In this document: one piece after another, positions 4,637-18,630 of the stretch
How the letters are laid out: the number at the start of each line of letters is the position of its first letter
Numbering within the stretch: position 1 is the first letter of the stretch
Made by a program: the position numbers and the translations under genes
NCBI GenBank assembly: GCA_029932895.1
Contig: JAOZPF010000004.1
Span: 1-32,353, forward strand
Direction of reading: 5' to 3'
Length of the DNA: 32,353 nucleotides
Source of the DNA: Anaerolineae bacterium
GTDB lineage: Bacteria; Chloroflexota; Anaerolineae; B4-G1; DUEL01
Notes under the pieces: generated by a model
Databases searched by the model: none
Seen by the model: only the letters and a program-made list of their open reading frames with translations
What the model was told of the DNA's origin: nothing

Positions 4637-4700
4637 CAGGCCGACCTACCCGGAGAAGGGGGCATAACCTCTTGTCCCATTGCAAAAAGGCGAACGGCGT

Positions 4701-5540
4701 ATGGCATTAAAAGGAAACCTGCGGGATTTTAGCACAACTCAGCTTCTGAACCTCGTCAACTTGGCGCGCAAGACCGGCACGCTCGCCATCGAGGGGCGAG
4801 ATGGACAGGTGCAGATGTGCTTCAAGGAGGGCAAGCTGATCTATGCCCGAATGAATGGGCAGGACGATCGGCTGGTAAGCATCCTCTTGAAAGCCGGCAA
4901 GATCACCGATGAACTCGCCCGTACCATTCGCGCCCGCTCCGACATCAAGGACGACCGCGAGTTGGGAGTGTTATTGAGCAATGCCGGCTATGTCACCCAG
5001 AGTGACATCGCCGATAGCGTCCGCAACTATACCCTGGGCATCGTCTACAAGCTCTTTACCTGGTCGGACGGCATGTTCCGCTTTGAACCCACCCTGCTCC
5101 CCATCCAGGGGCGCATCACAATTCCCATCAACCTGGAAAACGTGATCATGGAGGGCAGCCGCCGCCTCAAAGAGTGGGAGCGGCTGCAAGAAGAGCTGCC
5201 CAACCTGGACATGGCACTGCGCTTTACCGACCGCCCCGACGCGCGGCTGCGCACGATCAATCTGGCCGTCGAAGAATGGCGCGTGGTCTCTTTCATCAAC
5301 CCCCGCAACACGATCCGCCAGATCGCCCAGTACAACAATATGAGCGATTTTCAGATCCGGCGGATCGTCTATGGCCTCCTGCAGGCGGGACTGGTAGAGA
5401 TCGTCCAACCAGAAGGGGTGGAACCCAAGCCCGTGTCTGGTCCAGCAGGGGCACCGCCCCCCGCCCCAGTAGCCCGGAGGCGTCCTGCTGTCAAGCGGAG
5501 TGTCATTCGCAGGTTGATCGATCGCATTCGGGAGTTGTAA
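4701..5540 (+). CDS. DUF4388 / PATAN domain protein with Pro/Ala linker and basic C-terminal tail
   Basis: The N-terminus MALKGNLRDFSTTQLLNLVNLARKTGTLAIE is the typical DUF4388 opening. The C-terminus is PAGAPPPAPVARRRPAVKRSVIRRLIDRIREL. An in-frame TTG at 4680 is an alternative start. Confidence 0.8.
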   Translation: MALKGNLRDFSTTQLLNLVNLARKTGTLAIEGRDGQVQMCFKEGKLIYARMNGQDDRLVSILLKAGKITDELARTIRARSDIKDDRELGVLLSNAGYVTQSDIADSVRNYTLGIVYKLFTWSDGMFRFEPTLLPIQGRITIPINLENVIMEGSRRLKEWERLQEELPNLDMALRFTDRPDARLRTINLAVEEWRVVSFINPRNTIRQIAQYNNMSDFQIRRIVYGLLQAGLVEIVQPEGVEPKPVSGPAGAPPPAPVARRRPAVKRSVIRRLIDRIREL

Positions 5541-5543
5541 TCA

Positions 5544-6092
5544 ATGCAGACGCTCAAGATGGTGGTGACCGGCCCGTTTGCGGCGGGCAAAACGCAGTTC
5601 ATCCAAACCATTAGCGAGATCGACGTCGTCGCCACCGAGCGCAAGCTGAGCCGCGACGAGGAGCGGATCAAGGACCAGACCACTGTCGCGATGGACTTTG
5701 GACGGATCACCATCGACGAGGACCTGGTCCTCTACCTTTTCGGCACCCCAGGTCAGCGCCGCTTTGACTTTATGTGGGAGATTCTCTCCGAAGGGATGCT
5801 GGGCTTTGTCGTGGTGGTCGACAGCGTGCGGCCCGAGACATTCCGTGAAGCCCGCAGTATCCTGGATACGTTCCGCGCTTACGCCCCCACGCCGTACGTG
5901 GTGGCAGCCAACAAGCAGGACCAGGAGGACGCCTGGTCACCCGACGACCTGCGCATCGCTTTGCGCATCGCCTCAGAGATCAAGGTCCTCCCCTGCGTGG
6001 CGACGGATAAGGAAAGTGTCAAGCAGGTCCTGCTCGAATTGCTCTATGCCATACTAGAGATCATGGACGAGGAGGAAGAAGAGGCTGAATGA
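5544..6092 (+). CDS. Small Ras-like GTPase (COG2229 / CvnD-MglA-like ATP/GTP-binding protein)
   Basis: G1 is GPFAAGKT, G3 is LFGTPGQRRF, G4 is NKQD. The tail is acidic (DEEEEEAE). GGGAG lies 9 nt upstream, and the gene starts 3 nt after the DUF4388 stop. Confidence 0.85.
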   Translation: MQTLKMVVTGPFAAGKTQFIQTISEIDVVATERKLSRDEERIKDQTTVAMDFGRITIDEDLVLYLFGTPGQRRFDFMWEILSEGMLGFVVVVDSVRPETFREARSILDTFRAYAPTPYVVAANKQDQEDAWSPDDLRIALRIASEIKVLPCVATDKESVKQVLLELLYAILEIMDEEEEEAE

Positions 6093-6235: not shown

Positions 6236-7021
6236 ATGAGTTCAATCGTCACTGACCGTGGAGTGGTGCATTACGAGGCGTATGGGCGCGGGTTGCCGGT
6301 GGTGCTGCTCCACTGCTGGATGGGCTCGTGGGGCTACTGGCTCAGCACGATGGAGGCCCTGAGCGACAAGTACAAGACCTATGCCTTGGACTTTTGGGGA
6401 TTTGGTGATTCAACCAAGCGGAGCGGACAATATAATGTCCCTGATTATGTGGAGATGGTGGTGCAGTTCATGGAACGGCTGGGATTGCAAAGGGCTCCCG
6501 TGATGGGCCATTCGATGGGAGGCACTGTCTCATTGAGCCTGACCCTGAACCACCCCGAACTGGTCCAGAAGGTGGCTGTCTCTGGCTCCCCTATCAACGG
6601 CGACGGGTTGTCGCTGCTGCTCAAATTGGCCGCCAAACGCTTTCTGGCCTCCATGGCCTACAACATCCCCGGCGTGCTGCCCATCGGCATTCGCCTCATC
6701 TCCCCCTTTTGGGCGCGAGACTGGCGGACCTGGTATGCGATGTTCGAGCAGGACCTCTCTCGTACCACCGCCGAATCATTTCACTACAGCATCGCCTCTC
6801 TGCGCAAAACCGACCTCACACCACGACTGCACGAAATCCGAGTGCCAGCGCTGGGAATCTATGGCCGCAAGGACCGCATCGTCAATCCCAACCAGGGCGC
6901 ATTGCTGACCGATAACGCCCCGCTGGGCACAGTGGCCTACTTTGAGAACTCGGGCCACTTTCCGATGTTGGACGAGCCGGAAAAGTTTCACCGCACACTG
7001 CGCGAATTCCTGGACCGGTAG
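6236..7021 (+). CDS. Alpha/beta hydrolase (intact Ser-Asp-His triad)
   Basis: HCWMGSW oxyanion region. The nucleophile elbow is GHSMGG, with Ser93 encoded by TCG 6512-6514. Also GRKDRIV and NSGHFPMLDEP. A GATAAT box sits at 6208-6213 upstream. Confidence 0.9.
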   Translation: MSSIVTDRGVVHYEAYGRGLPVVLLHCWMGSWGYWLSTMEALSDKYKTYALDFWGFGDSTKRSGQYNVPDYVEMVVQFMERLGLQRAPVMGHSMGGTVSLSLTLNHPELVQKVAVSGSPINGDGLSLLLKLAAKRFLASMAYNIPGVLPIGIRLISPFWARDWRTWYAMFEQDLSRTTAESFHYSIASLRKTDLTPRLHEIRVPALGIYGRKDRIVNPNQGALLTDNAPLGTVAYFENSGHFPMLDEPEKFHRTLREFLDR

Positions 7022-7026
7022 GAAGT

Positions 7027-7665
7027 ATGGAAAAAACACCAGAGATCGATGCACTCCAAGAGCCGTATTTCCCCAACAAAATGGGGCGAATTCTGCTGTT
7101 GGCGATGGAAGAGGTGATGGGGCGTAACGGTGTCAACGCCCTGTTGAACCTGACAAACTTGAGAAAATGGGCCGAATACCCGCCCAATAACTTTGACATG
7201 GAGTTCCCGTTCAGCGACATGTCCCGCCTGATCGGAGGGTTGGAGGAGGTGTACGGCACGCGCGGGGGACGGGGGCTGGCCCTCCGCGCCGGCCACGCCT
7301 GCTTCCGCTTTGGCGTCAAGGACCTGGGCCCTATGCTGGGCGTGGCCGACCTGGCCCTGCGCGTGATGCCGCTGACGATGAAGATCAAGATCGGCTTTGA
7401 GGTGCTGGCCGAGGTCTTTAACAAGTTCAGCGACCATCAGGTACGGCTGGAGGAGGAGGACGAGTCTTTTCTCTGGATCATTGAGCAATGCGGTGTCTGT
7501 TGGGGCCGAAAAGCGTCTGCCCCTACCTGCCACCTGGCCGTGGGCATTCTCCAGGAAGGGCTCTTCTGGGTTAGCGGAGGCCAGAGCTTTGAGGTCGAAG
7601 AGATCTCTTGCATCGCCGTGGGAGACGAGACCTGTACGATCCGAATTGACAAGGAACCGATCTGA
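7027..7665 (+). CDS. V4R (4-vinyl-reductase-type) small-molecule-binding domain protein
   Basis: The C-terminal block is EQCGVCWGRKASAPTCHLAVGILQEGLFWVSGGQSFEVEEISCIAVGDETCTIRI, typical of V4R domains. Starts 5 nt after the upstream stop. Confidence 0.75.
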   Translation: MEKTPEIDALQEPYFPNKMGRILLLAMEEVMGRNGVNALLNLTNLRKWAEYPPNNFDMEFPFSDMSRLIGGLEEVYGTRGGRGLALRAGHACFRFGVKDLGPMLGVADLALRVMPLTMKIKIGFEVLAEVFNKFSDHQVRLEEEDESFLWIIEQCGVCWGRKASAPTCHLAVGILQEGLFWVSGGQSFEVEEISCIAVGDETCTIRIDKEPI

Positions 7666-7688: not shown

Positions 7689-8951
7689 ATGCGGAAAATC
7701 GTTCTGCATGATCACAGGCCAATATATCCCTTTAATGAACCTGCCAGGGAACTGCGCATCCTCAACAAGCCACTCTGGCTCTACCAGCGCGATGTCCTGG
7801 CCCCCTACGTGGAGGGGCTTGAGCGGGAGGTGAACTCGTTCGACGAGATCGGACCGGAACGGGTAGAGACGCTGGTCTACCGGGGCAATCTGTTCTTTGA
7901 CCGGTATTTCATCCATGACTTTGTGACCAGGGCGCGGCGGCTGGGGAAATCATGCCAGGTCGCCTTCCCGTTGGACGACCAAGCCATCGTCAACCACGCC
8001 CTACCGCTGCAACGAACGATACGGCGCAAGGGCGATTATTACGTCACCGACATGTGGTACTTTCCCTACGGCATCGAGGAGACCGTCCGCCCCCTGGTGA
8101 TGCACACCGAACCGCGCGAGATGGGCTACTACCGCGTGCCCACCCACATGTCGGATGCGATGGGGGACCTCGTCTACCAGGTGCCCACCAAGGCTTTTGT
8201 GGCCATCGAATCCTGGGTCCACGTGGTGTTGGCCAATGTGATCTTTGGCGTCTTTGCCGAGGCGGCCCGCCTGGACCGGAATATCGAGGAGAGCATCGCC
8301 CTGCAGCTCAAACTGTTCTGGCGAGCGTTGCTGGAGCAGAGACAGGTCCTCTCCTCCTCGGCCGTCGTCAAGATCGGCAAGAACTGTTCCATCGACCCCA
8401 GTGCCATCATCCGCGGGCCGACGGTGATCGGGGACAATGTCGACATCGGCCCTGGTGCGGTGATCGACATCTGCGTCATCGGCAACAACGTCACCGTCTC
8501 CGACGGCTGCCAGTTGATGCTCAGCGTGATCAGCGACCGCTGTTTCCTTCCCTTTCGCGCTTCCCTGTTCGAGACCGTTCTGATGGAAGATACAATGGTC
8601 GCGCAGAACACCTGCCTGCAGTTGAGTTGCGTCGGCCGGAGCAGTTTCGTCGGCGCTGGCAGCACTTTTACCGACTTTAATCTGATACCGAAAGAGCTCC
8701 GCGCTATCCACGGCGACAGCCTGGAGGACACTGGACTGACCGTTCTCGGGGGGTGCGTGGGCCACCACTGCCGGATCGGTTCGGGTATGATTGTCTATCC
8801 GGCCCGCACCATCGAGTCGGATAGTATACTGGTGGCCTCGCCGGAGCGGAGAGTTATCGACAAGGACGTCTCCTACGAGGAGAGCGACATTTACAAAATA
8901 CCGAACGCCACAAGCGTTCACCCGCGTCTCTACCCGCGGCACGGAGAGTAG
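7689..8951 (+). CDS. GlmU-like protein: NTP_transf_4-like N-domain without a nucleotide-binding loop, plus a left-handed beta-helix (hexapeptide repeats)
   Basis: The N-terminus is MRKIVLHDHRPIYPFNEPARELRILNKPL and has no GxGxR loop. The C-terminal half has [LIV]-G-x4 periodicity: IGKNCSIDPSAIIRGPTVIGDNVDIGPGAVIDICVIGNNVTVSDGC. Confidence 0.7.
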   Translation: MRKIVLHDHRPIYPFNEPARELRILNKPLWLYQRDVLAPYVEGLEREVNSFDEIGPERVETLVYRGNLFFDRYFIHDFVTRARRLGKSCQVAFPLDDQAIVNHALPLQRTIRRKGDYYVTDMWYFPYGIEETVRPLVMHTEPREMGYYRVPTHMSDAMGDLVYQVPTKAFVAIESWVHVVLANVIFGVFAEAARLDRNIEESIALQLKLFWRALLEQRQVLSSSAVVKIGKNCSIDPSAIIRGPTVIGDNVDIGPGAVIDICVIGNNVTVSDGCQLMLSVISDRCFLPFRASLFETVLMEDTMVAQNTCLQLSCVGRSSFVGAGSTFTDFNLIPKELRAIHGDSLEDTGLTVLGGCVGHHCRIGSGMIVYPARTIESDSILVASPERRVIDKDVSYEESDIYKIPNATSVHPRLYPRHGE

Positions 8952-8995: not shown

Positions 8996-10090
8996 ATGGA
9001 CTCGTTTGCCTTTATCATTCACCCGTTGGACCCCAAGGCAGACGTAGCGCGGAAGTATCCGCGCCTGGCCCGGGTGTTGCCGGTGTGGGCCATCCACTTC
9101 CTCTCCCGCTTTTGGCCCCCTCTGCTTCTCTCCCACGTGACAGGCATCCGCTCGGCAGCGACGGGTCGCGAGGTGGAGGGCTGGCTCCTGGCATGCCCTT
9201 TCACCGCGCGCCGGATGCTCCAACTGCCCCCTCGCGTGGTCTATCGCAAGATCATCCAGACCGGGCGGCTGGCCGAACGACTGGGGGCCAAAATACTGGG
9301 CCTGGGGGCATACACATCCGTGGTGGGTGATGGCGGGCTGACGGTCGCCAGAGCGCTCGATATCCCGGTCACCACCGGCGATAGCTACACCGTCGCCCTG
9401 GCGGTTCGCGCCCTGCTGGAGGCAGGAAGCCGGATGTCCATCGCTCCCAGCCAGGCCACCGGGGCCGTGGTCGGCGCGAGCGGCGCTATCGGCTCGGCCT
9501 GCGCGCGGCTGCTCGCCCCCCAGGTGCGAGAGATGCTCCTGGTGGGACGCCGAATGGAGCGCCTGAAAAAAGTGCGGGATGAGGTGATGAACCTGACCGA
9601 CAAGCCGGTCGAGATCACGAGCGACGTGGCGGACATACACCGAGCCGACCTGATCGCCAGCGCCACCAGCGCCGGGAAAGCGATCATCCGCGCCTCCCAC
9701 CTCAAACCAGGCGCGGTGGTCTGCGATGTCGCCCGACCACGGGACGTAGCGGCCCAGGTGGCGCAGGAGCGCGGAGACGTGCTGGTGGTCGATGGGGGGC
9801 TGGCTGAGGTGCCGGGGCAGGTGAACTTTGGCTTTGATTATGGACTGCCTCCCCGCCTCACCTTCGGCTGTATGGCCGAGACGATGGCCCTGGCCCTCGA
9901 GGGCCGCTTCGAGGACTATACGGTGGGCAAGGACATAGATATCGACCGCGTGAAAGAGATCGAGCGGGTCGCGGAACGGCACGGTTTTCGGCTGGCCGGC
10001 CTGCGCTCCTTCGAGCATTTGTTGACAGAGGAACGGATTTCATCCGTCCGCCGCAAGGCGGCCCAGGTGGCCAAATCTGGCCCCGCCTAG
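8996..10090 (+). CDS. Acyl-ACP reductase (AAR)-like NAD(P)-dependent reductase (COG5322-type)
   Basis: Collinear by eye with my recollection of cyanobacterial AAR (not aligned or searched). Shared blocks are LGLGAYTSVV, TTGDSYT and the Rossmann segment ATGAVVGASGAIGSACARLL. The FGCMAETMALALEG block carries Cys292 (TGT 9869-9871), and the C-terminus is ERHGFRL. Confidence 0.75.
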   Translation: MDSFAFIIHPLDPKADVARKYPRLARVLPVWAIHFLSRFWPPLLLSHVTGIRSAATGREVEGWLLACPFTARRMLQLPPRVVYRKIIQTGRLAERLGAKILGLGAYTSVVGDGGLTVARALDIPVTTGDSYTVALAVRALLEAGSRMSIAPSQATGAVVGASGAIGSACARLLAPQVREMLLVGRRMERLKKVRDEVMNLTDKPVEITSDVADIHRADLIASATSAGKAIIRASHLKPGAVVCDVARPRDVAAQVAQERGDVLVVDGGLAEVPGQVNFGFDYGLPPRLTFGCMAETMALALEGRFEDYTVGKDIDIDRVKEIERVAERHGFRLAGLRSFEHLLTEERISSVRRKAAQVAKSGPA

Positions 10091-10106
10091 TTTGGGAGGT
10101 TACAGT

Positions 10107-11000
10107 ATGAGCGAGGGGAGAATCCTGGTCGTAGAAGACGATTTTGACATCTCGAACATGCTGCGCATCTACTTCCAGAGCCAGGGCTACGAGGTATCCG
10201 TAGCGCCACGGGGAAGCGACGCGCTTGAGATGACGCGCCAGCAACTACCCAACATCATCGTCCTCGATATTATGCTCCCGGATCTGGATGGGTATGATGT
10301 CTGCCGCCACCTGCGCAGCAACCTGCGTACCAAGCACATTCCCATCATCTTTCTCACCCAGAAGGACGAGCGGTCGGACAAAATCCACGGCCTCGAGCTG
10401 GGGGCGGATGATTATATCACCAAGCCCTTTGATGTCGAAGAACTAAAGCTGCGGGTCAAGAACGCTATGGCCAGAGCAGCCTACGAGAGCCTGACCAACC
10501 CTACCACCGGGCTTCCCAGTTCCAAACTCATCGAGGAGCAACTGCGCGAGCTGATGCGGCGGGATAACTGGGGTGTCCTCTACATCGGCATCGAGCGCCT
10601 GGAGCCCTTCAGCGAGGTCTATGGCTTTGTCGCCGCCGACGAGGTCCTGCGCTATACCGCCATGGTGTTGGGCGAGACGGTGGACGGGCTGGGCACCCCC
10701 AACGACTTTATCGGCCACGTTGGCGGGGACGACTTTCTCATCATCACCCGCGCCAACCTGGTCAAGCCGCTGACGGAGGACCTGCAGCGACGCTTTGCAG
10801 CCGGGGTTGGCACCCACTATGACTTCAAGGCCCGCCAGCAGGGGTACATCATCGTTCAGGACGACGAGGGAAACGAGCGCAAAGTGGGATTGATGGAGCT
10901 GGCAGTCGGCACTATCACCGACCAGGACGGCCCCTTCACCGACATCCGCGAGATCACCGAGGCAGCAGCTTCGGCGCGACGCGAGCGAAGCCGCGCCTGA
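10107..11000 (+). CDS. Response regulator: receiver plus degenerate GGDEF domain (GGDDF)
   Basis: The REC motifs are intact: VVEDD, IIVLDIMLPDLDG, IIFLTQ, DYITKPF. The GGDEF-like domain has TGLPSS instead of TGLxNR, HVGGDDF instead of GG(D/E)EF, and no RxxD I-site. GGGAGG lies 7 nt before ATG 10107. Confidence 0.85.
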   Translation: MSEGRILVVEDDFDISNMLRIYFQSQGYEVSVAPRGSDALEMTRQQLPNIIVLDIMLPDLDGYDVCRHLRSNLRTKHIPIIFLTQKDERSDKIHGLELGADDYITKPFDVEELKLRVKNAMARAAYESLTNPTTGLPSSKLIEEQLRELMRRDNWGVLYIGIERLEPFSEVYGFVAADEVLRYTAMVLGETVDGLGTPNDFIGHVGGDDFLIITRANLVKPLTEDLQRRFAAGVGTHYDFKARQQGYIIVQDDEGNERKVGLMELAVGTITDQDGPFTDIREITEAAASARRERSRA

Positions 11001-11040: not shown

Positions 11041-14000
11041 ATGGAGATGCCAAACCTAGAACGGCCAAAGGGCATAGCTGCCCCGTTAGGGGGGATCACC
11101 CTCATCCTGGTCCTCGGCCTGGGCCTGAACCTGGTCCCGGTCGAGTGGCTGGGGCCGTTCTACCTGGCGCTCCCCTTCGCCGTCGTCGCCCTGACGCTCC
11201 TGACCGAGCGACGCGCCACGCTGGTAGGCGCCGCCATCGCTGTCCTCGCCCTGGCGCTCCGCCTCTTGCGGCCCGCTCCGACCCCCAGCATGGTCTCGGG
11301 CATCGTCGCCGGCCTGCTCTGCCTGGCAGCGGCCCTTTTCCTCCCCCCCCTCGGCGCCCTGCGGCAGGTGCGAAGAGGCGTCCGCCGCAAAACCAGGGGT
11401 AGACGATCATACCGCGACCTGGCGGAAGCGGTGCTGGACGAAGCGCTGCGGGTGACAGGGGCCGAGATGGGCGAAGTGTTGCTTCGTCTCAGTGATGAGG
11501 AACAGGTACAGCAGATTACAAGTCGGGGCCTGGGAGGAACATCGCTGGCCTCCTCTGCCTCCGGGCACGGGGACCGCGTCGTGACCGACCTGGTGCTGAG
11601 CGAGCAACGGCTTTGCCTCTTTTCTCCGCCCCCCACGACCGGAGCACAAACCGGGGCCGCGCTCCCCCTCCGCACCCAGGACCAGGTTCTGGGGCTCGTC
11701 TGTGTGGGCAGCCACGCCAAGCGCACTTTCAACTCGCGGGAACTGGCCCGCTTTTACGCTGTGGCGGAGGAAGGGGCGTCCGCCCTGGCATCGGTTATCC
11801 CCACCTCGCCCGGTCCCGCCCCCACACGGGAGATGGAGGAGCTGACCACCCTCGACGAGATCGGGCACGCCATCACTGCCAGCCTGGACCTGGGAACAAC
11901 TCTGAGAACGATTCTCGTCTCTACCCGCAAACTCATCCCCTTCGACCTGGGGGAGGTGACTCTGTGGGATTCGGCCAGCCACCGGCTGGTAAGCCGGGGA
12001 TCGCTCGACGCCGACGAGTACCACGCCGCGGTGGGCGACACATACCGCCTGAACGAGGGATACTCCGGCTGGCTGGCCCGTAATCGCCGCCCCCTCCTCA
12101 TCACCGATATTCCCAACTACCGGGAGGTGCGACCCAAGCTGGACCGCCCTGACTCTCCCCTCCGCTCTTTCCTCGGCCTCCCGCTGGAGAACCGGGGCGA
12201 GTTCATCGGTACGCTAGAGTTGGTCAGCTATCAACTGGATGCCTTTTCCGAACATGACCTGGACCTCTTGCAGACCATCGGCACTTATGCCGCCGCGGCC
12301 ATTGAGCACGCCCACCTCTACGAAGAGGCCCGGCGCCGGACGTTGGAACTGGATTCCCTCTCGCGCGTCTCGGCGGCGGTGAGTTCCACACTGGACCTGG
12401 ATCAGGTCCTCCAGACCATTGCCACCTCGGCCCTGGAGGTGGTCGGCTGCAATCGCTCGGCGATCTTTGTGTTGGAGGAGGAGAGCGACACGTTGCGCCT
12501 GGCGGCGAGCCAGGGCCTGAGTAAAACGTATGTGGACAAGTCGCAGGCCCTCCCCATCGAGGCCGGTGGTCGTACCCACGCCGTCGCCACCAGACAGCCG
12601 GTACTGGTGGAGGACATTACCGCCGATCCAGGATTGCGCCGCCTGGCCCCTCTGGCCGAGGGAGAGGGAGTCGTCGCCTTTGCCGACATCCCGCTGCGAG
12701 TGGGGAAACAGGTGATCGGCATGCTCTCGGCCTTTTTCACCCAGCCCCACCGTTTTACCGATGTGGAGCGGGGGCTGCTGACCTCCTTTGCCGACCAGGC
12801 AGCGATCGCTATCGAGAACGCCCGTCTCTATGCCAACACCGACCGGGAACTGCGGCGTCAGGCAGAAGCGCTGAGCGGATTGCAGGTGGTGGCGCAGGAG
12901 GTGAGTGTCACTTTCGACCAGGAGCATATCCTGCGCATTGTGCTGGAAGAGGCTATGCACCTCAGCCGCGCCGACCACTGCGCCATCCTCCTCTACGATG
13001 AGCCATCGGACCACTGGACGATGGGCTTTTGCGCTGGCTACTTGGAAGAGGAACAGGCCGCCCTGCGGCAGCGGTTGTCGAACCTGCCCGACGAGGACAG
13101 TTTCGCCGAAATGTGCCGCACCGGCAAGACCCTCCACCTGGACGACGCGACGGAGGAGGGCCGGGAGGTGGTGGGGCGGAGCGATGTACGCTCGGCGCTC
13201 CTGGTCCCCATCCGCTACGGGGAACAGACCGCCGGCGCCATCGTCCTGGGCAGCCGGAGCGTTGGCTGCTTCGACGACGTCGTCCGCCGTTTTGTCGAGA
13301 CGCTCGCCGCCCAGGCAGCCATCGCCATCAGCAACGCCCGTCGCTATCAGGAGCAGAGCGACCGCAACACCCTCCTGCGCCAGCGGGCTGACCAGTTGTC
13401 CAGCGTCTTGGAGGTCAGCCGGGCCGTCCGCTCCGACGAGCCTCTGGAAGATGTATTGGAAGAGATCGCCTATGCCATCCAGGAGAGCGTGGGCTTTGAC
13501 CTGGTGCTTGTCAGCATGCTGGAGGGAGACCCGCCCCACCTACGCCGCGTCGCGGCCGCTGGCGTCCCCCTGCCGGTGCTGGAGCAGATGAAGCAAGTCC
13601 TCCAGCCCTGGAAATCGCTGGAAGTGGTGATCCGCGACGAGTTCAAGATCAGCCAAAGCTATTACATCCCCGCCGAGGAACAGGCCCGCTGGCGCGACAC
13701 CCTGCACACCTACGAGCAAGAAAATGTAGAGACCGCCAGAGAGCCGGGCCGCTGGCACCCACAGGACATGCTCCTCACGCCGCTGCTCGGTTCCGGCGGC
13801 GAGATTCAGGGTATCCTCTCGGTGGACGAACCTCGCGATGGCCGAGTGCCTGGCTACCCCACCATCGAGGCACTGGAGGTATTCGCCGCCCAGGCTGCTG
13901 CCTACATCGAGAACGCACGTCTGCTCAAAGCCCTGCAGGGCCAGTTGGACGCTCTCTCCGTGTTCAACGAGATCAACCGCTCTGTGGCAGCCAAGCTCGA

Positions 14001-17000
14001 CCTGGACGAGGTGCTACGGACGGTCGTCGGCTCGGCGGCCCGCCTGATCGACTGTCAGGGCAGCGTTATCTTTCTCGAAGAAGAGAGGACCGGTCAGTAC
14101 GTGGCCCGGCAGACCTATGGTCACGACCTGGCGGCGTTGAAAAAGAGCGTCTTCGCCCCCGGCGAGGGGCTGGTGGGCAGCGTCGCCGAGAGCGGGATGC
14201 CCATCTCGGTGCGGGACGTGGAGGAGGAGACAGGCGGTGAGCCTGACTATGTGCAGGAGGGGGCAGCGATCCTCGTCCCCCTCAGCATTGGCGGAAGGGT
14301 GGTGGGCGTGCTGACCGCCGACCGTGACTACAGCGAGCCCTTCAGCCCGGTGGATGTGGCTACCCTCACCGCCCTGGCCGACCAAGTGGCCGTAGCCGTG
14401 CAGAACGCCCAGCTGTTCGCAGAGACAACCCGCCGCAGCCAGGAACTTTCCACGCTGCTGGAGGCGGGCAGCGCCCTCTCGTCCACCCTGGACCTGAACT
14501 GGGTGCTGCAGGCCCTCGGCGACCGGCTGCTGGAGAGCGCGCAGGCCGATAGTTGCCTCATCTCGGAGTGGGACCGCGACGAGAACCGGGTGACGGTGGT
14601 GTGGGAGATGGGCGACCCCTCCGTCCGCCCGCTGCTCGGCACTACCTACCTGGCCTCTCAGCGTCCAGATGTCGTGGAAGTGCTTCTCGTCCAGGAGCCT
14701 ATGCTTCTCGCGCTAGACAACCCCCAGATCAGCAATGCCGCCCGCGCTCACCTGGAGCAGAGAGAAGCCCACACCGTCCTGCTGCTCCCTATGGTCGCCC
14801 GTGGGCAGACGGTGGGGCTGGTGGAATTGGAACGGCGCGGCGAGCGCGGCCCCTTCGCCCCAGGCGAGGTCCGCCTAGCCGAGGCGCTGGCGAGCCAGGC
14901 CGCCGCCGCAATGGCGAACGCGCGGCTGTACGAAGAAATCCGCCGCTTTAGCGCTGAACTGGAGGAGCGGGTCGAGAAACGGACCCACGAGCTGGCCCAG
15001 GCCCTCCAAGACCTGACGGTCGAGCGGGACCGGATGGAAACGCTCTACCGCATCACAGCCGAGGTCTCGGCCAGTTTGGACCTGGACCACGTGTTGAACC
15101 GGACGCTGGAGCTGGTGGTGGAGGCGACCGGCGCGGAGCGCGGCGTGACCCTGTTGGACGATCCGGAGACGGAGCAATTGTTCTACCGTGCCGGCGTGGG
15201 ATTGCCGGTGCACCTCCCACCCGGAGGGCGCCCCTCCCGCTTCCAGCACGGCGATGGGCTGGTGGGCTGGGTGATCGAGCATAACGAGTCCGTAGTGATC
15301 CCCGATCTGCGCGAGGAACCACGCTGGGTGCCCAGCGAGATGGAGGACCCGGTGCACCGGGCCTGCTTGGCTGTCCCATTAAGCAGGGCAGGGGAGGTTC
15401 AGGGGGCGTTACTGCTCTTTTCCTCCACCCCTGGTCTCTTTACCGAGGATCACCTGCGGCTGACCGAAGCGGCGGCGACCCAGATAGCCAATGCCGCTGG
15501 CAACGCCGTGCTCTACAACCTGATCCGCGAACAGGCCGAGCGGCTGGGCACGATGCTCAAGGCCCAACAGGTCGAGGCCGCCAAGAGCCAGGCCATCCTG
15601 GAGGGAGTCGCCGACGGGGTCGTGGTAGCCGACGCCAAAAACCAGATCGTCCTCTTTAACGCCGCCGCCGAGCGAATCTTGGAGATCCCCCGCGAGCAGG
15701 CCCTGGGCCGGACGACGCGGGAGATGATCGGGTTGTACGGCGGCGAAGGCCGGACCTGGCTGGAAGCGATCGAGGATTGGACAGCCCACCCCACCACCGA
15801 CCGCACTCCCGAGGACTTTGTCACCGAGCGGCTGGAGCTGGACAACCAGGTCGTGAGCGTCCACGCCGCCCCGGTTATCATGGGCTCCGAGTACCTGGGC
15901 ACTGTCTCTGTCTTCCGCGACATCACCGCCGTGGTGGAGGCAGACCGGGCCAAGAGCGAGTTCGTCTCCACGGTCTCCCACGAGCTGCGCACACCGATGA
16001 CCTCCATCAAGGGGTACGCCGACCTGCTGTTGATGGGGGCGGTGGGCGAGTTGGGCGATCAGCAGCTCCACTTTCTCTCCATAATCCGCAACAACGCCGA
16101 CCGGCTGACCGCCCTGGTCAACGACCTACTGGACATCTCCCGCATCGAGACCGGGCGAGTGGAACTGGACCTGAAGGCAATCCACATCCACGATACCGTG
16201 AACCAGGTCGTCAACACCCTTCTGGGCCGGGCGGAGGGGAAAGGGCTGACCCTCACCTCCGACGTGGCGGAGGACCTCCCCGCCGTCTGGGGTGATAGCG
16301 CCCGCCTGGTCCAAATCCTGACCAACCTGGTGGGCAATGCGATCTACTACACGCCGCCGGGCGGCTCGGTCCACGTCTCCGCCCGCCCCGTGGGCGATGT
16401 ATTGGAGATCTCGGTGACCGACACCGGCATCGGCATCGCCAAGGAGGACCAGGCCAAGATATTTGGCCGTTTCTTCCGCGTCGACGACCCCCTGGTGCAA
16501 GAGACGCCAGGCACTGGCCTCGGCCTGCCGATCACCGCCTCCCTGATCGAGATGCACGGCGGCAAGATTTGGGTCGAGAGCGAGTTGGGGGAGGGCAGTG
16601 TCTTTACCTTTACCATCCCCCTGGCCCGCGCGGTGCAGGCGACGGCTCAGGCCCGCGAGGCGGGTGTGCAGCAACTCTTGGTGGTCGAGGACGACCCGGA
16701 TATCGCCAACCTGATCCGCGCTCAGTTGGAGGAGGCGGGATACCGGGCGACCGCCGTGGGACGGGGAGAGGATGCACTCCAGGCAGCAAGGGAACTACTC
16801 CCGGCCCTCATCACACTGGACATCCGCCTGCCTGATATGGACGGGTTCGAGGTGCTGAAACGATTGAAGCACGACCCCGAGACCGCCGATATTCCCGTGG
16901 TCATTGTCTCCGTGGTGGAGGACAAGGAAAAGGGATTCCGGCTGGGAGCGCTGGATTATGTGGGCAAGCCAATCGACGAGGAATCGCTGCTGGGCGCGGT

Positions 17001-17421
17001 GCGCGGTATCCTCGAATCCCATGGCCTCGTCCTCGTCGTGGACGACGACCGGGACACGCTCTCTATGGTTCGCGAAGCACTGCGGCGACACGGCTTTCAC
17101 GTCCGCACCACCGCCCGGGGGCGTCGCGCCCTCCAGGTAGCCAGGGACCTGCGGCCCGCCCTGGTGCTGCTCGACCTAAAGTTGCGGGATGTAGACGGTT
17201 ACCACGTGTTGCGACAACTCAAATCCGACCCCCGCACGCGCGCTATACCCGTCGTCATTATGACGGGTAGCCTGACTGAGGAGGAGGTCAAGCAACAGCG
17301 AGCGTTGACGCTGGGTGCGGCCCGTTTTCTGACCAAACCGTTTGCAATAGAGGAGCTGGTTGACGAAATCTCGGCCGTCCTGCAGCATGCCGCCGAGAAG
17401 CAGGTCGCGCAACCCGCCTAG
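11041..17421 (+). CDS. Membrane-anchored multi-GAF / PAS hybrid sensor histidine kinase with two C-terminal receiver domains (2126 aa)
   Basis: Domains in order: N-terminal hydrophobic helices; 8 successive GAF-like modules, each ending in an AxxAAxAIxNAxLY-type helix; a PAS domain (VADGVVVADAKNQIVLFNAAAERIL). The kinase core follows: H-box SHELRTP (His1647, CAC 15979-15981), N-box NLVGNAIYYT, G-boxes DTGIGI and GTGLGL. Last come REC1 (Asp1927) and REC2 (Asp2045). Confidence 0.95.
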   Translation: MEMPNLERPKGIAAPLGGITLILVLGLGLNLVPVEWLGPFYLALPFAVVALTLLTERRATLVGAAIAVLALALRLLRPAPTPSMVSGIVAGLLCLAAALFLPPLGALRQVRRGVRRKTRGRRSYRDLAEAVLDEALRVTGAEMGEVLLRLSDEEQVQQITSRGLGGTSLASSASGHGDRVVTDLVLSEQRLCLFSPPPTTGAQTGAALPLRTQDQVLGLVCVGSHAKRTFNSRELARFYAVAEEGASALASVIPTSPGPAPTREMEELTTLDEIGHAITASLDLGTTLRTILVSTRKLIPFDLGEVTLWDSASHRLVSRGSLDADEYHAAVGDTYRLNEGYSGWLARNRRPLLITDIPNYREVRPKLDRPDSPLRSFLGLPLENRGEFIGTLELVSYQLDAFSEHDLDLLQTIGTYAAAAIEHAHLYEEARRRTLELDSLSRVSAAVSSTLDLDQVLQTIATSALEVVGCNRSAIFVLEEESDTLRLAASQGLSKTYVDKSQALPIEAGGRTHAVATRQPVLVEDITADPGLRRLAPLAEGEGVVAFADIPLRVGKQVIGMLSAFFTQPHRFTDVERGLLTSFADQAAIAIENARLYANTDRELRRQAEALSGLQVVAQEVSVTFDQEHILRIVLEEAMHLSRADHCAILLYDEPSDHWTMGFCAGYLEEEQAALRQRLSNLPDEDSFAEMCRTGKTLHLDDATEEGREVVGRSDVRSALLVPIRYGEQTAGAIVLGSRSVGCFDDVVRRFVETLAAQAAIAISNARRYQEQSDRNTLLRQRADQLSSVLEVSRAVRSDEPLEDVLEEIAYAIQESVGFDLVLVSMLEGDPPHLRRVAAAGVPLPVLEQMKQVLQPWKSLEVVIRDEFKISQSYYIPAEEQARWRDTLHTYEQENVETAREPGRWHPQDMLLTPLLGSGGEIQGILSVDEPRDGRVPGYPTIEALEVFAAQAAAYIENARLLKALQGQLDALSVFNEINRSVAAKLDLDEVLRTVVGSAARLIDCQGSVIFLEEERTGQYVARQTYGHDLAALKKSVFAPGEGLVGSVAESGMPISVRDVEEETGGEPDYVQEGAAILVPLSIGGRVVGVLTADRDYSEPFSPVDVATLTALADQVAVAVQNAQLFAETTRRSQELSTLLEAGSALSSTLDLNWVLQALGDRLLESAQADSCLISEWDRDENRVTVVWEMGDPSVRPLLGTTYLASQRPDVVEVLLVQEPMLLALDNPQISNAARAHLEQREAHTVLLLPMVARGQTVGLVELERRGERGPFAPGEVRLAEALASQAAAAMANARLYEEIRRFSAELEERVEKRTHELAQALQDLTVERDRMETLYRITAEVSASLDLDHVLNRTLELVVEATGAERGVTLLDDPETEQLFYRAGVGLPVHLPPGGRPSRFQHGDGLVGWVIEHNESVVIPDLREEPRWVPSEMEDPVHRACLAVPLSRAGEVQGALLLFSSTPGLFTEDHLRLTEAAATQIANAAGNAVLYNLIREQAERLGTMLKAQQVEAAKSQAILEGVADGVVVADAKNQIVLFNAAAERILEIPREQALGRTTREMIGLYGGEGRTWLEAIEDWTAHPTTDRTPEDFVTERLELDNQVVSVHAAPVIMGSEYLGTVSVFRDITAVVEADRAKSEFVSTVSHELRTPMTSIKGYADLLLMGAVGELGDQQLHFLSIIRNNADRLTALVNDLLDISRIETGRVELDLKAIHIHDTVNQVVNTLLGRAEGKGLTLTSDVAEDLPAVWGDSARLVQILTNLVGNAIYYTPPGGSVHVSARPVGDVLEISVTDTGIGIAKEDQAKIFGRFFRVDDPLVQETPGTGLGLPITASLIEMHGGKIWVESELGEGSVFTFTIPLARAVQATAQAREAGVQQLLVVEDDPDIANLIRAQLEEAGYRATAVGRGEDALQAARELLPALITLDIRLPDMDGFEVLKRLKHDPETADIPVVIVSVVEDKEKGFRLGALDYVGKPIDEESLLGAVRGILESHGLVLVVDDDRDTLSMVREALRRHGFHVRTTARGRRALQVARDLRPALVLLDLKLRDVDGYHVLRQLKSDPRTRAIPVVIMTGSLTEEEVKQQRALTLGAARFLTKPFAIEELVDEISAVLQHAAEKQVAQPA

Positions 17422-17432
17422 GAAGATGACCC

Positions 17433-17813
17433 ATGACCAAAATTCTTGTGGCTGAAGATGAAAAGGACATTCGCGAACTGATCGCTTTCACGCTCCGCTT
17501 TGCCGACCTCGAAGTCGTCCTGGCGACGAATGGCGAAGAATCCGTGCAGATGGCACGGGCGGAGCAACCGGATTTGATCCTGATGGATGTGCGGATGCCC
17601 AAGATGACGGGATACGAGGCCTGTCGCCGCTTGAAAGAGATTCCAGAGACGGCCGAGATTCCAGTTGTTTTTCTCTCGGCCAAGGGGCAGGATGCCGAGG
17701 TTCAACAGGGTCTGGATTCAGGTGCGACCGAGTACATACTCAAACCTTTTGCGCCCGACGAGTTGATCGTCCAGGTACGGAGGATTCTGGAAAAATCAGG
17801 GCGCGCCAAGTGA
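17433..17813 (+). CDS. Single-domain CheY-like response regulator
   Basis: VAEDE, DLILMDVRMPKMTG, VVFLSAKG and EYILKPF. Starts 11 nt after the kinase stop. Confidence 0.9.
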   Translation: MTKILVAEDEKDIRELIAFTLRFADLEVVLATNGEESVQMARAEQPDLILMDVRMPKMTGYEACRRLKEIPETAEIPVVFLSAKGQDAEVQQGLDSGATEYILKPFAPDELIVQVRRILEKSGRAK

Positions 17814-17835: not shown

Positions 17836-18630
17836 ATGAGCGCGATAATCATTGAGAATGGGCTGACTCACTACGAGGCCATTGGCCGCGGTAGGCCGGT
17901 GATCCTGCTGCACGGGTGGTTGGGCTCTTGGCGGTACTGGGTACCGACTATGGACGACCTCTCGGATCGATTCCGCGCCTATGCTATGGATTTGTGGGGA
18001 TTTGGTGATTCGGACCGTCGCCGGGATAGTTATACTATCTCCTCCTACGTCCTCCTATTGCAGCGGTTTATGGACGAGATGGGGATCATCCGTGCCCCAT
18101 TGGTCGGGCACGCGCTGGGCGGGGTGGTCGCCCTCCACTTTGCCGCACAGATGCCGGAGCGGGTGGAGCAGGTGATGGCGGTCAGCACGCCGCTGGCGGG
18201 CACGGCAGTGATGCCTTCCCTCTCCAATTTTTCTGGCAACGGCGACGACGCGGTGACACGTGTGTTGGGCCGCCGGCAAGCCGCCACCTACCCCGAAGTG
18301 CAGTTGGAAGCCAGCAAGGCTGACGCCTCTGCTATTGTGAACAGCGTGCGGGCCGTGTTGCAGGACGACTTGCGCGCCCTCATCCCCGCTCTTGAGATCC
18401 CCGTCCTGCTGGTCCACGGTCAGCGCGACCCCGTCATCCAGCCACCCGACGAGGCCTGGCTGGAGGAAATGGCGGATAACGCACGGGCGATCTATCTGGA
18501 CGAGTCACGCCACTTTCCTATGCTCGACGAGACCCACAAGTTCAACAAGCTGTTGCGGCTGTTCTTGGAGGTCAAGGACGACCTGGACAGCCTGGAACTG
18601 AAGAAGGAGTGGCGGCGGCGAATGCGGTAG
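17836..18630 (+). CDS. Alpha/beta-hydrolase-fold protein, paralog of 6236-7021, with nucleophile Ser replaced by Ala (GHALGG)
   Basis: The N-terminal two-thirds is clearly alignable with the first operon gene by eye (HYEA-GRG-P--LLH-W-GSW-YW...WGFGDS). Codon 93 is GCG (18112-18114), giving Ala. Asp (GQRDPV) and His (SRHFPMLDE) are retained. Confidence 0.9.
   Translation: MSAIIIENGLTHYEAIGRGRPVILLHGWLGSWRYWVPTMDDLSDRFRAYAMDLWGFGDSDRRRDSYTISSYVLLLQRFMDEMGIIRAPLVGHALGGVVALHFAAQMPERVEQVMAVSTPLAGTAVMPSLSNFSGNGDDAVTRVLGRRQAATYPEVQLEASKADASAIVNSVRAVLQDDLRALIPALEIPVLLVHGQRDPVIQPPDEAWLEEMADNARAIYLDESRHFPMLDETHKFNKLLRLFLEVKDDLDSLELKKEWRRRMR

Follow-up and report, generated by a model that had tools for sequence, protein, structure and literature searches.

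The last gene of a conserved signalling cluster of the Anaerolineae encodes ABH_B, an alpha/beta-hydrolase (ABH) fold protein without the serine nucleophile, while an intact paralog, ABH_A, is encoded within the same cluster. We lean towards the reading that ABH_B and the serine hydrolase ABH_A are old paralogs, that ABH_B lost its Ser early in Anaerolineae, and that it now serves the phosphorelay as a non-hydrolytic subunit. A non-enzymatic partner of signalling proteins is the most likely role for ABH_B, because the Ser was lost long ago and yet the gene has been kept beside the same signalling gene in all related genomes examined. The features discussed are collected in Table 1, with positions in the window, i.e., the whole stretch of 32,353 nucleotides that was analysed.

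Table 1. Positions of the genes, codons and motifs discussed.
Feature	Positions	Strand	Description and basis
DUF4388 (PATAN-type) protein	4680..5540	+	First gene of cluster; Pfam DUF4388 9.4e-27; syntenic in 61 loci
Small Ras/Arf-like GTPase	5544..6092	+	Pfam ATP_bind_1, Arf, Ras
ABH_A	6236..7021	+	261-aa paralog, intact Ser93-Asp213-His241 triad; translation
17-mer copy in ABH_A	6395..6411	+	Encodes WGFGDS
Ser93 codon of ABH_A	6512..6514	+	TCG; GHSMGG elbow; placed through the ORF translation
V4R-domain protein	7027..7665	+	Pfam V4R 2.6e-7, at cutoff
Left-handed beta-helix (hexapeptide-repeat, LbH) protein	7689..8951	+	Pfam Hexapep 1.2e-13
Acyl-thioester reductase-like protein	8996..10090	+	Resembles PigE N-domain and cyanobacterial acyl-ACP reductase
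REC + degenerate GGDEF	10092..11000	+	GGDDF; Pfam, motif
Hybrid histidine kinase	11041..17421	+	2126 aa; ~7 GAF, PAS, HisKA, HATPase_c, 2 REC (Pfam)
Single-domain CheY-like receiver	17433..17813	+	Pfam Response_reg 4.8e-30; intact acidic pocket (..DLILMDVRMP..)
ABH_B (subject of this study)	17836..18630	+	264-aa alpha/beta-hydrolase fold without Ser nucleophile, GHALGG; translation
GSWRYW motif of ABH_B	17923..17940	+	Residues 30-35, start of helix A
17-mer copy in ABH_B	17995..18011	+	Encodes WGFGDS
Ala93 codon of ABH_B	18112..18114	+	GCG, nucleophile elbow; read directly
Asp198 codon of ABH_B	18427..18429	+	GAC, kept acid of the former triad; read directly
His226 codon of ABH_B	18511..18513	+	CAC, kept His of the former triad, inside HFPML; read directly
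B-specific C-terminal tail	18583..18627	+	LDSLELKKEWRRRMR; absent from A

Two Paralogous Alpha/Beta Hydrolases, One without a Serine Nucleophile

ABH_A and ABH_B align from Met1 onwards with 35% identity and 57% positives (pairwise E 3e-62), which upholds the paralogy proposed by the first-pass annotation of this DNA. The same annotation placed Ser (GHSMGG) and Ala (GHALGG) at residue 93 of the two elbows and stated that the Asp and His of the triad are present in both proteins. The translations and the codons read in ABH_B bear this out, and in the alignment Asp198 and His226 of ABH_B are the counterparts of Asp213 and His241 of ABH_A. ABH_A is the closest relative of ABH_B: the two share common N-terminal motifs, and the oxyanion-hole HG-x motif that follows strand 3 (H26-G27-W28), assessed on the sequence alone, is conserved in both. 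The lid of ABH_A, in contrast, is about 15 residues longer and better conserved than that of ABH_B, and ABH_A lacks the C-terminal tail. When 1.84 billion representatives were searched with a profile, A-type GHSMGGT sequences came out as the nearest non-B family.

ABH_B belongs to the alpha/beta-hydrolase fold superfamily. It matches Pfam Abhydrolase_1 with an E-value of 7.9e-25 and 88 bits (cutoff 25.8) and Abhydrolase_6 with 64 bits, and its AlphaFold2 model (pLDDT 86, pTM 0.89, low pLDDT in the tail) retrieved 1816 PDB ABH chains at E<=0.001 in Foldseek, the top ones with TM 0.79-0.80. PDB sequence and fold searches returned generic ABH neighbours only, those in Foldseek with TM 0.66-0.80; the top match was an engineered S103A mutant. 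The NCBIfam matches were likewise generic and below threshold (PcaD, BioH, PHA depolymerase). In ABH_B of the window, the G-x-Nu-x-G elbow offers no Ser, Cys or Asp as nucleophile, and we infer that acyl-enzyme hydrolysis would be impossible for this protein. Nor does the protein fit the Asp-nucleophile type of haloalkane dehalogenases and epoxide hydrolases (G-H-D-x-G), as it has Ala instead.

The two genes also have in common a stretch of 17 identical nucleotides, noted in the first reading of the sequence. This 17-mer, TGGGGATTTGGTGATTC, indeed occurs exactly twice in the window, with zero copies expected from shuffles, and it codes for the invariant peptide WGFGDS. The identical DNA was found in 0/61 A orthologs and 1/35 B orthologs, and the chance of the same codon choice across the 17-mer, estimated from ortholog codon frequencies, is about 3%. 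As the orthologs do not in general share the identical DNA, and chance could account for the matching codons, we read the 17-mer as paralogy at an invariant motif and nothing further; gene conversion and a DNA-level element were both rejected.

ABH_B Follows the CheY-Like Gene throughout the Anaerolineae

The cluster is ordered PATAN, GTPase, A, V4R, LbH, acyl-thioester reductase-like, REC-GGD(D/N)F, multi-GAF hybrid kinase, CheY and B. In a genome scan anchored on the acyl-thioester reductase-like gene, most of 80 species-level loci, and 5 metagenome loci as well, showed the gene order of the window. Conservation of the cluster extends over Anaerolineales, Thermoflexales, Caldilineaceae, Villigracilaceae and Aggregatilineales. 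The window itself derives from an uncultured Anaerolineae bacterium; Aggregatilinea lenta and Anaerolinea thermophila are cultured carriers of the cluster. Its most conserved gene is that of the small GTPase (median identity 79% over 61 loci). The V4R protein weakly matches the sensor domain of PoxR (5fru), and the matches of the LbH protein to GlmU and LpxD are weak as well. The reductase-like protein matches NCBIfam PigE (3.6e-66) and AcACP_reductase (4.4e-29), both below cutoff, as well as the PDB entries 4ppm (1.5e-42) and 6jzq (1.8e-23). Orthologs of the REC-GGDEF protein carry GGDDF or GGDNF and never GG(D/E)EF. The hybrid kinase varies from 1372 to 3119 aa among orthologs owing to the varying number of GAF domains; in the window its only Pfam PAS domain (residues 1516-1635) lies after the GAF array and before HisKA.

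ABH_B lies directly downstream of the CheY-like gene and is co-directional with it in 58/58 species-level loci; the two genes are 0-138 nt apart (22 nt in the window), and wherever B is missing after CheY, a contig end accounts for it. The association with the CheY-like gene, proposed from a single window, is thus far stronger than that window could show. The description of an operon bracketed by the two paralogs holds only at its downstream end: ABH_B is the last co-directional gene in the window, the next gene (18684-20558) being convergent, but the cluster starts two genes upstream of ABH_A, and one sub-type of the cluster has no A at all and retains B. A search for RNA runs that might show co-transcription returned none.

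The Serine Loss Is Old and the Elbow Has Remained Variable

The residue at the elbow was compared in three sets of B proteins. It is Ala in 92, Gly in 20, Ser in six, and Thr and Asp in one each of the 120 closest homologs; the 58 species-level orthologs carry Gly (39), Ala (8), Asp (6), Asn (4) and Ser (1), and 129 diverse B-type proteins carry Gly (79), Ala (19), Ser (17), Asp (8), Asn (4) and Thr (2). The first-pass annotation had proposed such an alignment of orthologs, a general Ser being the outcome that would point to a local mutation or a sequencing error; Ser was found in 6/120, 1/58 and 17/129, so that the pseudo-enzyme idea withstood this check. It is retained in about 13% of the B family overall and in about half of the Aggregatilineales sequences listed, and those B members that have it may be active hydrolases. 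All three triad residues are kept without exception in ABH_A orthologs (183/183, i.e., 120/120 homologs together with the aligned species-level orthologs, in which Ser was found in 62/62, Asp in 63/63 and His in 63/63). Since few B homologs and orthologs carry Ser while A has it in 183/183, the loss of Ser in B is ancient and either tolerated or selected, not strain-specific.

We give practically no credence to the idea that the Ala reflects a sequencing or assembly error or a strain-specific mutation, or that B is a decaying pseudogene. The Ala codon shows no difference over positions 18106-18132 in contigs of three independent metagenome runs (one hydrothermal-vent, two marine-sediment), and the lack of Ser is common to most orthologs across the bacterial class; together these results led us to reject error and strain mutation. 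Decay of the gene is contradicted by the B ORF, which is intact at every orthologous locus where the sequence reaches, and by the 41 positions that are at least 92% conserved among the 129 diverse B sequences.

The expectation that Ala itself would prove conserved was not borne out. Gly is the commonest residue, and many independent switches have occurred: at least 19 residue changes are required on a neighbour-joining tree of the near relatives and at least 28 on a wider one. Fitch parsimony places Gly at the root of B on the near-relative tree, and Ser occupies the basal branches of the wider tree. Ala as a selected state was therefore rejected. B has evolved faster than A in 48/48 species.

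The other two triad residues have been kept far better. The position of Asp198 is Asp in 119/119 near homologs, 51/55 species-level orthologs and 123/129 diverse members, and that of His226 is His in 119/119, 52/55 and 120/129, respectively. Nevertheless, His is replaced by Tyr in three species-level orthologs and by Phe, Leu, Gln or Pro in B representatives elsewhere, and Asp by Asn, Gly or Val, all in intact orthologs. Some B orthologs, e.g., those of Anaerolinea thermophila (L084) and Aggregatilinea lenta (P0460), have a GHDLGA elbow, and the acid position is Asn in several proteins of this type (L084, L060, L072). On the evidence of these His and Asp replacements, decay of the former triad has begun in some B lineages.

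These counts bear on the main alternative to a partner role, namely that ABH_B is still an enzyme, of a non-hydrolytic or non-canonical kind, with His226-Asp198 as general base or water activator. It could be a lyase, decarboxylase, isomerase or oxygenase, for which the elbow residue need only be small, and its substrate might be a product of the upstream A, LbH or acyl-thioester reductase-like proteins. Besides the invariant His and Asp of the near homologs and their presence in about 93-95% of the family, the retained HG-W oxyanion loop and the plausible small-molecule enzymes in the operon speak for it. Precedent is found in the cofactor-independent ABH-fold dioxygenases, in which a His-Asp dyad works and Ala at the elbow is tolerated or natural (kcat is kept in HOD S101A), and in tomato MKS1, which still decarboxylates beta-keto acids without a canonical triad (PMC10548524). 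ABH_B resembles HOD/AqdC and MKS1 in that Ala is possible at the elbow and the His-Asp pair is kept, but their catalytic-base His is strict, whereas B loses His in several lineages and A shows no exception in 183. Asp and Asn at the elbow, which B also accepts, would reshape such a site, and B persists in clusters without A. No specific affinity of ABH_B to HOD/AqdC or MKS1 was seen in PDB sequence and Foldseek searches, and no dioxygenase or MKS1 neighbour was among the top 50 Foldseek matches. Overall, we consider a surviving enzymatic function possible but doubtful. The first-pass annotation had called B a non-catalytic pseudo-enzyme; the Ser loss on which this was based proved old, while the word non-catalytic is to be held more loosely, as the widespread His and Asp leave room for non-canonical catalysis.

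A Conserved Basic Tail and a Poorly Conserved Lid

B carries a conserved signature of its own. The family consensus of the C-terminal tail is ..L(E/K)LK(E/D)EW(R/K)RRxR-COOH, and Trp259, Arg261 and Arg264 are present in every B member, although these residues partly define the tail-bearing set; the tail motif was not found in the other ORFs of the window. In the GSWRYW motif, Gly30, Arg33 and Tyr34 are 96-98% conserved among the 129 diverse B members, while A is variable there (D/N/V and H/Y/P). The residues conserved in B only, i.e., Arg33, Tyr34, Arg47, Arg238, Trp259, Arg261, Arg262 and Arg264, are mostly arginines, and the last of them lie in the unstructured tail.

The lid is the least conserved part of B. 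Mean conservation over 46 species is 0.48 in the lid, 0.56-0.69 in the core and 0.68 in the tail, and the lid of A reaches 0.63. The lid residues E154, E158 and D163 are invariant in the near B family but unconserved family-wide, and Aggregatilineales B orthologs carry Pro/Ala/Ser-rich low-complexity insertions of 70-270 aa at this place. A cyanobacterial origin of these long-lid forms, guessed from their sequences, was rejected when the homolog search assigned them to Aggregatilineales, within Anaerolineae. For an enzyme, a specificity-defining lid of such low conservation that accepts long low-complexity insertions argues against retained catalysis. As the tail and the basic B-specific residues are conserved while the lid is poorly conserved and tolerant of insertions, a docking or adaptor role for B is favoured over that of a specific ligand receptor. 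The suggestion that B is either a ligand receptor or an adaptor for the kinase thus gains on its adaptor side and loses on its receptor side.

Comparison with Known Signalling Hydrolases

A second alternative is that ABH_B is mainly a small-molecule receptor, similar to RsbQ, KAI2 or D14, which has given up hydrolysis; the old active-site pocket would bind a substrate or product of A or of genes 1-4 and signal to the kinase or CheY. The His, Asp and oxyanion residues that form the pocket are mostly kept, and the V4R protein and the acyl-modifying enzymes of the cluster suggest a hydrophobic ligand. However, the variable, insertion-bearing lid with its unconserved E154, E158 and D163 is unexpected for a specific ligand pocket, and B remains where A is missing from the cluster.

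The butenolide receptors D14, KAI2 and DAD2 have the same fold as ABH_B (TM 0.66-0.72) and transduce signals via protein-protein contacts. They are thus among its structural neighbours, but they rank 12-38 in the Foldseek search, below generic lactonases and esterases, and are no closer to ABH_B than PcaD (2xua) or AidH (TM 0.77-0.80). Moreover, D14, KAI2 and DAD2 keep and use the Ser-His-Asp triad.

ABH proteins are also known to work in signalling with PAS-containing phosphatases, kinases and cyclases, as in the RsbQ-PAS modules (PMC3183031). The RsbQ-RsbP(PAS) module was described in Bacillus subtilis along with 45 homologous pairs, and it is defined by a hydrolase gene immediately upstream of that of a signalling protein with an N-terminal RsbP-type PAS domain; the outputs are histidine or hybrid kinases in Gram-negative members and GGDEF cyclases in others, and the RsbQ triad Ser96-Asp219-His247 is conserved and required (PMC3183031). 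The likeness to the Anaerolineae cluster is that of a stand-alone ABH protein encoded beside a signalling protein, and PAS precedes HisKA in the kinase here, too. The differences are that ABH_B is encoded downstream of the CheY gene, 415 nt past the end of the kinase gene; that PAS is N-terminal in RsbP and follows the GAF array in the kinase here; and that ABH_B has no Ser and has a basic C-terminal tail unmentioned for RsbQ (PMC3183031). RsbQ was absent from the top 50 Foldseek and the top 60 sequence matches of ABH_B. Membership of ABH_B in the RsbQ-PAS group was rejected on gene order and triad, and a primary receptor function seems unlikely to us.

Proposed Role in the Phosphorelay

As a non-enzymatic partner, B would belong to the phosphorelay that is encoded next to it, and purifying selection would have maintained it in this role. 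Helices A and F share one face of the sheet in the canonical alpha/beta-hydrolase topology. Extrapolating from this topology, the B-specific residues would form one basic surface with a flexible basic tail, and this surface may dock onto an acidic partner. Judging from gene adjacency, the most likely candidates would be the CheY-like receiver encoded next to B and the receiver and kinase domains of the hybrid kinase. In the docked state, B would influence phosphotransfer or link it to an output, and a small ligand may still be bound by the kept His-Asp pair and the oxyanion loop.

Non-catalytic ABH-fold proteins are known from eukaryotes, i.e., neuroligins, NDRG proteins, ABHD5/CGI-58 and GID1. 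These paralogs of active hydrolases lack one residue of the triad and function through the partners or ligands that they bind; they are unrelated to ABH_B in sequence and have other partners. Among bacteria, we know of no such pseudo-hydrolase that has been described as part of a two-component phosphorelay, and searching the literature for this cluster, or for pseudo-hydrolases in bacterial two-component systems, brought up nothing relevant. A bolder and rather improbable version of the partner role is that B is the founding bacterial pseudo-hydrolase devoted, as an accessory subunit, to a phosphorelay. The Arg-rich surface and the ..EEW(R/K)RRxR tail would then bind the CheY-like receiver at its phosphorylated or acidic face or, alternatively, a nucleotide second messenger tied to the REC-GGD(D/N)F protein, while a lipid-derived molecule handled by the A, reductase-like and LbH enzymes would be sensed in the old pocket.

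Significance

To our knowledge, dead paralogs turned regulators are well documented in eukaryotes and rarely in bacterial two-component signalling. Here, an active and a serine-less paralog are encoded in one operon, and the dead copy is fixed beside a CheY-like gene in 58/58 checkable genomes. The conserved signature of B, with its basic tail and arginine set, leads to testable predictions, and GGD(D/N)F adds a second degenerate enzyme domain to the cluster. The immediate impact is moderate, because the result is a comparative-genomics inference on a protein of predicted role only. Anaerolineae are an abundant and poorly studied class in sediments, vents and digesters, and the cluster is among their most conserved multi-gene signalling units. 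Were B indeed a founding pseudo-hydrolase, an enzyme and a dead enzyme would be wired as a pair into one signalling device conserved across the class Anaerolineae. The physiology of the Anaerolineae would benefit considerably from knowing which signals the cluster senses and what it controls.

The Paralogous Pair and Its Gene Cluster

The window encodes two alpha/beta hydrolases, ABH_A and its serine-less paralog ABH_B, and the translations of their ORFs agree with those of the first-pass annotation. Their BLASTP alignment begins at Met1 and extends as far as the end of ABH_A (35% identity, 57% positives, E 3e-62), in accordance with the proposed paralogy from residue 1. At the nucleophile elbow (position 93 in both proteins) the reported exchange was confirmed: ABH_A carries GHSMGG, with Ser93 placed by translation at codon 6512-6514, and ABH_B carries GHALGG, with a GCG codon read directly from the DNA at 18112-18114. 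The Asp and His of the triad are retained in both, Asp213 and His241 of ABH_A corresponding to Asp198 (GAC 18427-18429) and His226 (CAC 18511-18513) of ABH_B, whose lid is about 15 residues shorter. The identical 17-nt stretch noticed in the two genes occurs exactly twice in the window, with none expected from shuffled sequences. It codes for the invariant peptide WGFGDS, for which orthologs use other synonymous codons (the same DNA in 0/61 ABH_A and 1/35 ABH_B genes). Since ortholog codon frequencies give an estimated chance of about 3% for the same codon choice at this peptide, the 17-mer carries no message beyond paralogy.

Pfam and NCBIfam scans of the co-directional genes gave the annotation listed in the table.

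Genes of the cluster surrounding ABH_A and ABH_B
Feature	Position	Remarks
DUF4388/PATAN protein	4680-5540	co-directional with ABH_B
Small Ras/Arf-like GTPase	5544-6092	co-directional with ABH_B
ABH_A	6236-7021	261 aa (ORF translation)
V4R-domain protein	7027-7665	co-directional with ABH_B
Left-handed beta-helix (LbH) protein	7689-8951	co-directional with ABH_B
Protein like PigE N-domain/cyanobacterial acyl-ACP reductase	8996-10090	PDB 4ppm 1.5e-42, 6jzq 1.8e-23
REC (receiver) + degenerate GGDEF domain	10092-11000	co-directional with ABH_B
Hybrid kinase	11041-17421	2126 aa: ~7 GAF, PAS, HisKA, HATPase, 2 REC
Single-domain CheY-like receiver	17433-17813	ABH_B 22 nt downstream
ABH_B	17836-18630	264 aa (ORF translation)
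TPR/PD40 gene	18684-20558	convergent to ABH_B

ABH_B closes the unit in the window, as the TPR/PD40 gene after it is convergent. The suggested bracketing of the operon by the two hydrolases thus holds at one end only, because ABH_A comes third, not first, in the conserved cluster. The PATAN and GTPase genes lie upstream of ABH_A in 61 species-level loci; PATAN-GTPase neighbourhoods have been described, with hydrolase or V4R neighbours unmentioned there (PMC4316618). The GTPase, often with an acidic C-terminus (..MDEEEEEAE in the window), is the most conserved cluster product (median identity 79%), and the hybrid kinase the least (36%), its orthologs ranging from 1372 to 3119 aa as GAF domains are gained and lost (window, L002-L006, L087). 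The kinase contains two REC domains, and two more receiver proteins are encoded in the cluster, in which no HPt domain was found.

The V4R protein has a Pfam score exactly at the cutoff and a weak match to the phenol-binding PoxR sensor domain (5fru, E 0.009). Its start lies 6 nt past the ABH_A stop, a spacing that suggests possible translational coupling of the two genes. About 300 residues of the reductase-like protein align with the PigE N-terminal domain and acyl-ACP reductase, and its GxSGxIG nucleotide-binding motif and invariant Cys292 (..FGCMAET..) suggest a putatively active acyl-thioester reductase. The REC-GGDEF protein has GGDDF, within ..FIGHVGGDDFLIIT.., and its Pfam match covers the GGDEF model only up to the middle. 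In orthologs, GGDDF or GGDNF was found in 71/71 with listed motif counts (about 80 aligned) and the catalytic GG(D/E)EF never; this makes it a second conserved enzyme domain in the cluster that is probably non-catalytic.

Loss of the Nucleophile in ABH_B Orthologs

With the reductase-like gene as anchor, scanning a single genome for each species found 243 genomes. The best 80 loci all belong to the class Anaerolineae (Anaerolineales, Thermoflexales, Caldilineaceae, Villigracilaceae, Brevefilum, Anaerolinea thermophila, Desulfolinea), and the ten-gene order is kept in most of these and in five further metagenome/MAG contigs. In ABH_A, Ser, Asp and His are present in 120/120 nearest homologs and in 62/62, 63/63 and 63/63 species-level sequences, respectively. 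The elbow of ABH_B is Ala in 92, Gly in 20, Ser in 6, Thr in 1 and Asp in 1 of the 120 nearest homologs (54-75% identical, Anaerolineae/Chloroflexota MAGs), and Gly in 39, Ala in 8, Asp in 6, Asn in 4 and Ser in 1 of the species-level genomes, where the triad Asp and His persist in 51/55 and 52/55. Searching 1.84 billion cluster representatives with a profile yielded 306 proteins at E<=1e-30; the ABH_B type is told by GSWRYW and its C-terminal tail, and the next nearest family is the ABH_A type with GHSMGGT. Diverse ABH_B members pooled (n = 129) have Gly (79), Ala (19), Ser (17), Asp (8), Asn (4) or Thr (2) at the elbow, and retain Asp in 123/129 and His in 120/129.

The three sets indicate that Ser loss is old and widespread. 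The ortholog alignment proposed in the first-pass annotation thus speaks against a strain-specific change, Ser being in the minority in each set (6/120, 1 of 58 and 17/129). Ala is not the conserved state of ABH_B, as Gly is commonest in the species-level and diverse sets; the elbow is free to drift between residues that are small or fit the elbow, Ala being simply the one found in the window sub-clade. The Ala codon is the same in independently assembled contigs from one hydrothermal-vent and two marine-sediment runs, so it is not an error. With Ser loss widespread and the gene intact in every locus where sequence extends to it, the explanation by error, private mutation or pseudogene is refuted and retains practically no probability.

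ABH_A and ABH_B form separate clades in neighbour-joining trees, and the ABH_B elbow changed at least 19 times on one tree and at least 28 times on another, wider one. In the near-relative tree, those close relatives of the window protein that have Ser are dispersed singly; in the wider tree Ser occupies basal ABH_B branches. In the order Aggregatilineales, about half of the listed sequences still have Ser, the others having Asp, Gly or Ala. The cultured Aggregatilinea lenta carries GHDLGAA in the same REC-GGDEF, kinase, CheY, ABH_B context (ABH_B at L087:10001-11155, kinase of 3119 aa). An Asp-elbow sub-clade has GHDLGAL, as in dehalogenases and epoxide hydrolases; three of its loci (L084, L060, L072, including Anaerolinea thermophila) have Asn as triad acid, two (L063, L070) keep Asp, and an adjoining clade has Asn at the elbow.

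What Selection Maintains

ABH_B follows the CheY gene in 58/58 loci reached (gap 0-138 nt); wherever it seemed to be absent, the contig ended. Eight loci (L037, L044, L051, L058, L059, L061, L064, L079) lack PATAN, GTPase and ABH_A and retain ABH_B, which ties it to a core made up of the LbH, reductase-like, REC-GGDEF, kinase and CheY genes, not to its paralog. In this sub-type the elbow is always Gly, three species have Tyr for the triad His, and the LbH gene is preceded by genes for a YccF-like membrane protein (122 aa) and for an unannotated protein of 233 aa (e.g., L044:7386-8486). ABH_B is not always terminal, since in some Thermoflexales-like genomes a co-directional 290-293-aa gene without a Pfam match comes next (L002:10826-11698, L004:10837-11718); ABC-2 transporter genes follow it in other genomes.

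ABH_B evolves faster than ABH_A in 48/48 species (median identity to the window 44% versus 55%; CheY 67%, GTPase 79%). Regional conservation, taken as mean majority-residue frequency over the same 46 species, is 0.69 in its N-terminal core, 0.48 in the lid, 0.56 in the C-terminal core and 0.68 in the last 19 residues; the ABH_A lid, at 0.63, equals the ABH_A C-terminal core. Aggregatilineales proteins (P0256, P0264, P0265, P0390-P0500) bear, where the lid starts, about 70-270 inserted residues of low complexity, rich in Pro/Ala/Ser, and a variant tail, ..QFKDQWRRTMR.

Ten positions are at least 92% conserved in diverse ABH_B but not in ABH_A (Gly30, Arg33, Tyr34, Arg47, Pro228, Arg238, Leu239, Trp259, Arg261, Arg264), and Arg262 hardly varies within the near family; the ABH_B-specific positions are mostly arginines plus two aromatics. 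The tail, ..L(E/K)LK(E/D)EW(R/K)RRxR, is always C-terminal, is absent from ABH_A and was found in no other ORF of the window. The ABH_B model has pLDDT 86 and pTM 0.89, with low pLDDT in the tail. The textbook alpha/beta-hydrolase topology puts helices A and F on one side of the sheet; by this arrangement Arg33/Tyr34 (helix A start), Arg47, Arg238/Leu239 (last helix) and the tail would form one basic surface.

Possible Functions of ABH_B

Pfam, the AF2 model and Foldseek assign the alpha/beta-hydrolase fold to ABH_B, which lacks the nucleophile that defines a serine hydrolase. Given the ancient Ser loss in a protein under selection, the pseudo-enzyme proposed in the first-pass annotation is the best reading and is partly supported, although some relatives keep Ser and another catalytic route is conceivable. 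Such a route, through the His-Asp pair, is the main rival, though less likely: conservation of the pair and of the oxyanion loop still stands at about 93-95%, Ala occurs naturally at the elbow of ABH-fold dioxygenases, and MKS1 lacks a canonical triad (PMC10548524). However, Asp is occasionally lost and His is replaced, by Tyr in the three species also lacking ABH_A and, in some representatives, by Phe, Leu, Gln or Pro, which argues against an indispensable catalytic pair; the lid, being relaxed and tolerant of insertions, speaks against a narrowly defined pocket for a substrate or ligand.

The lid likewise makes a non-hydrolysing small-molecule receptor of the RsbQ/KAI2/D14 kind rather improbable. 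The concept of ABH signalling is established (PMC3183031) and KAI2/D14 are among the structural neighbours of ABH_B, but they are no nearer than generic lactonases or esterases. An RsbQ-PAS module is ruled out: the gene order differs, the N-terminal RsbP-type PAS partner is missing, and the triad, intact in that module, is broken.

Of the receptor and adaptor roles first suggested, the adaptor appears to suit ABH_B better, being favoured by the strongly conserved predicted basic surface, the tail and the CheY-side position. We therefore lean, with some reservation, towards a non-hydrolytic regulatory or adaptor subunit. Loss of the nucleophile makes an acyl-enzyme mechanism impossible; ABH_B would dock via its basic surface and tail onto a partner of acidic character, for which CheY or one of the hybrid kinase's receiver or kinase domains is the most plausible candidate, and would then alter phosphotransfer or link it to an output.

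No curated family covers ABH_B, NCBIfam giving sub-threshold generic matches only. Full-text literature searches found no account of the cluster, nor of any pseudo-hydrolase in bacteria that is linked to a two-component system. In eukaryotes, ABH paralogs that are catalytically dead and serve as binding proteins are well known. ABH_B, its function inferred from comparative data only, offers a clear-cut example, open to testing, from a bacterial class that has received little study.
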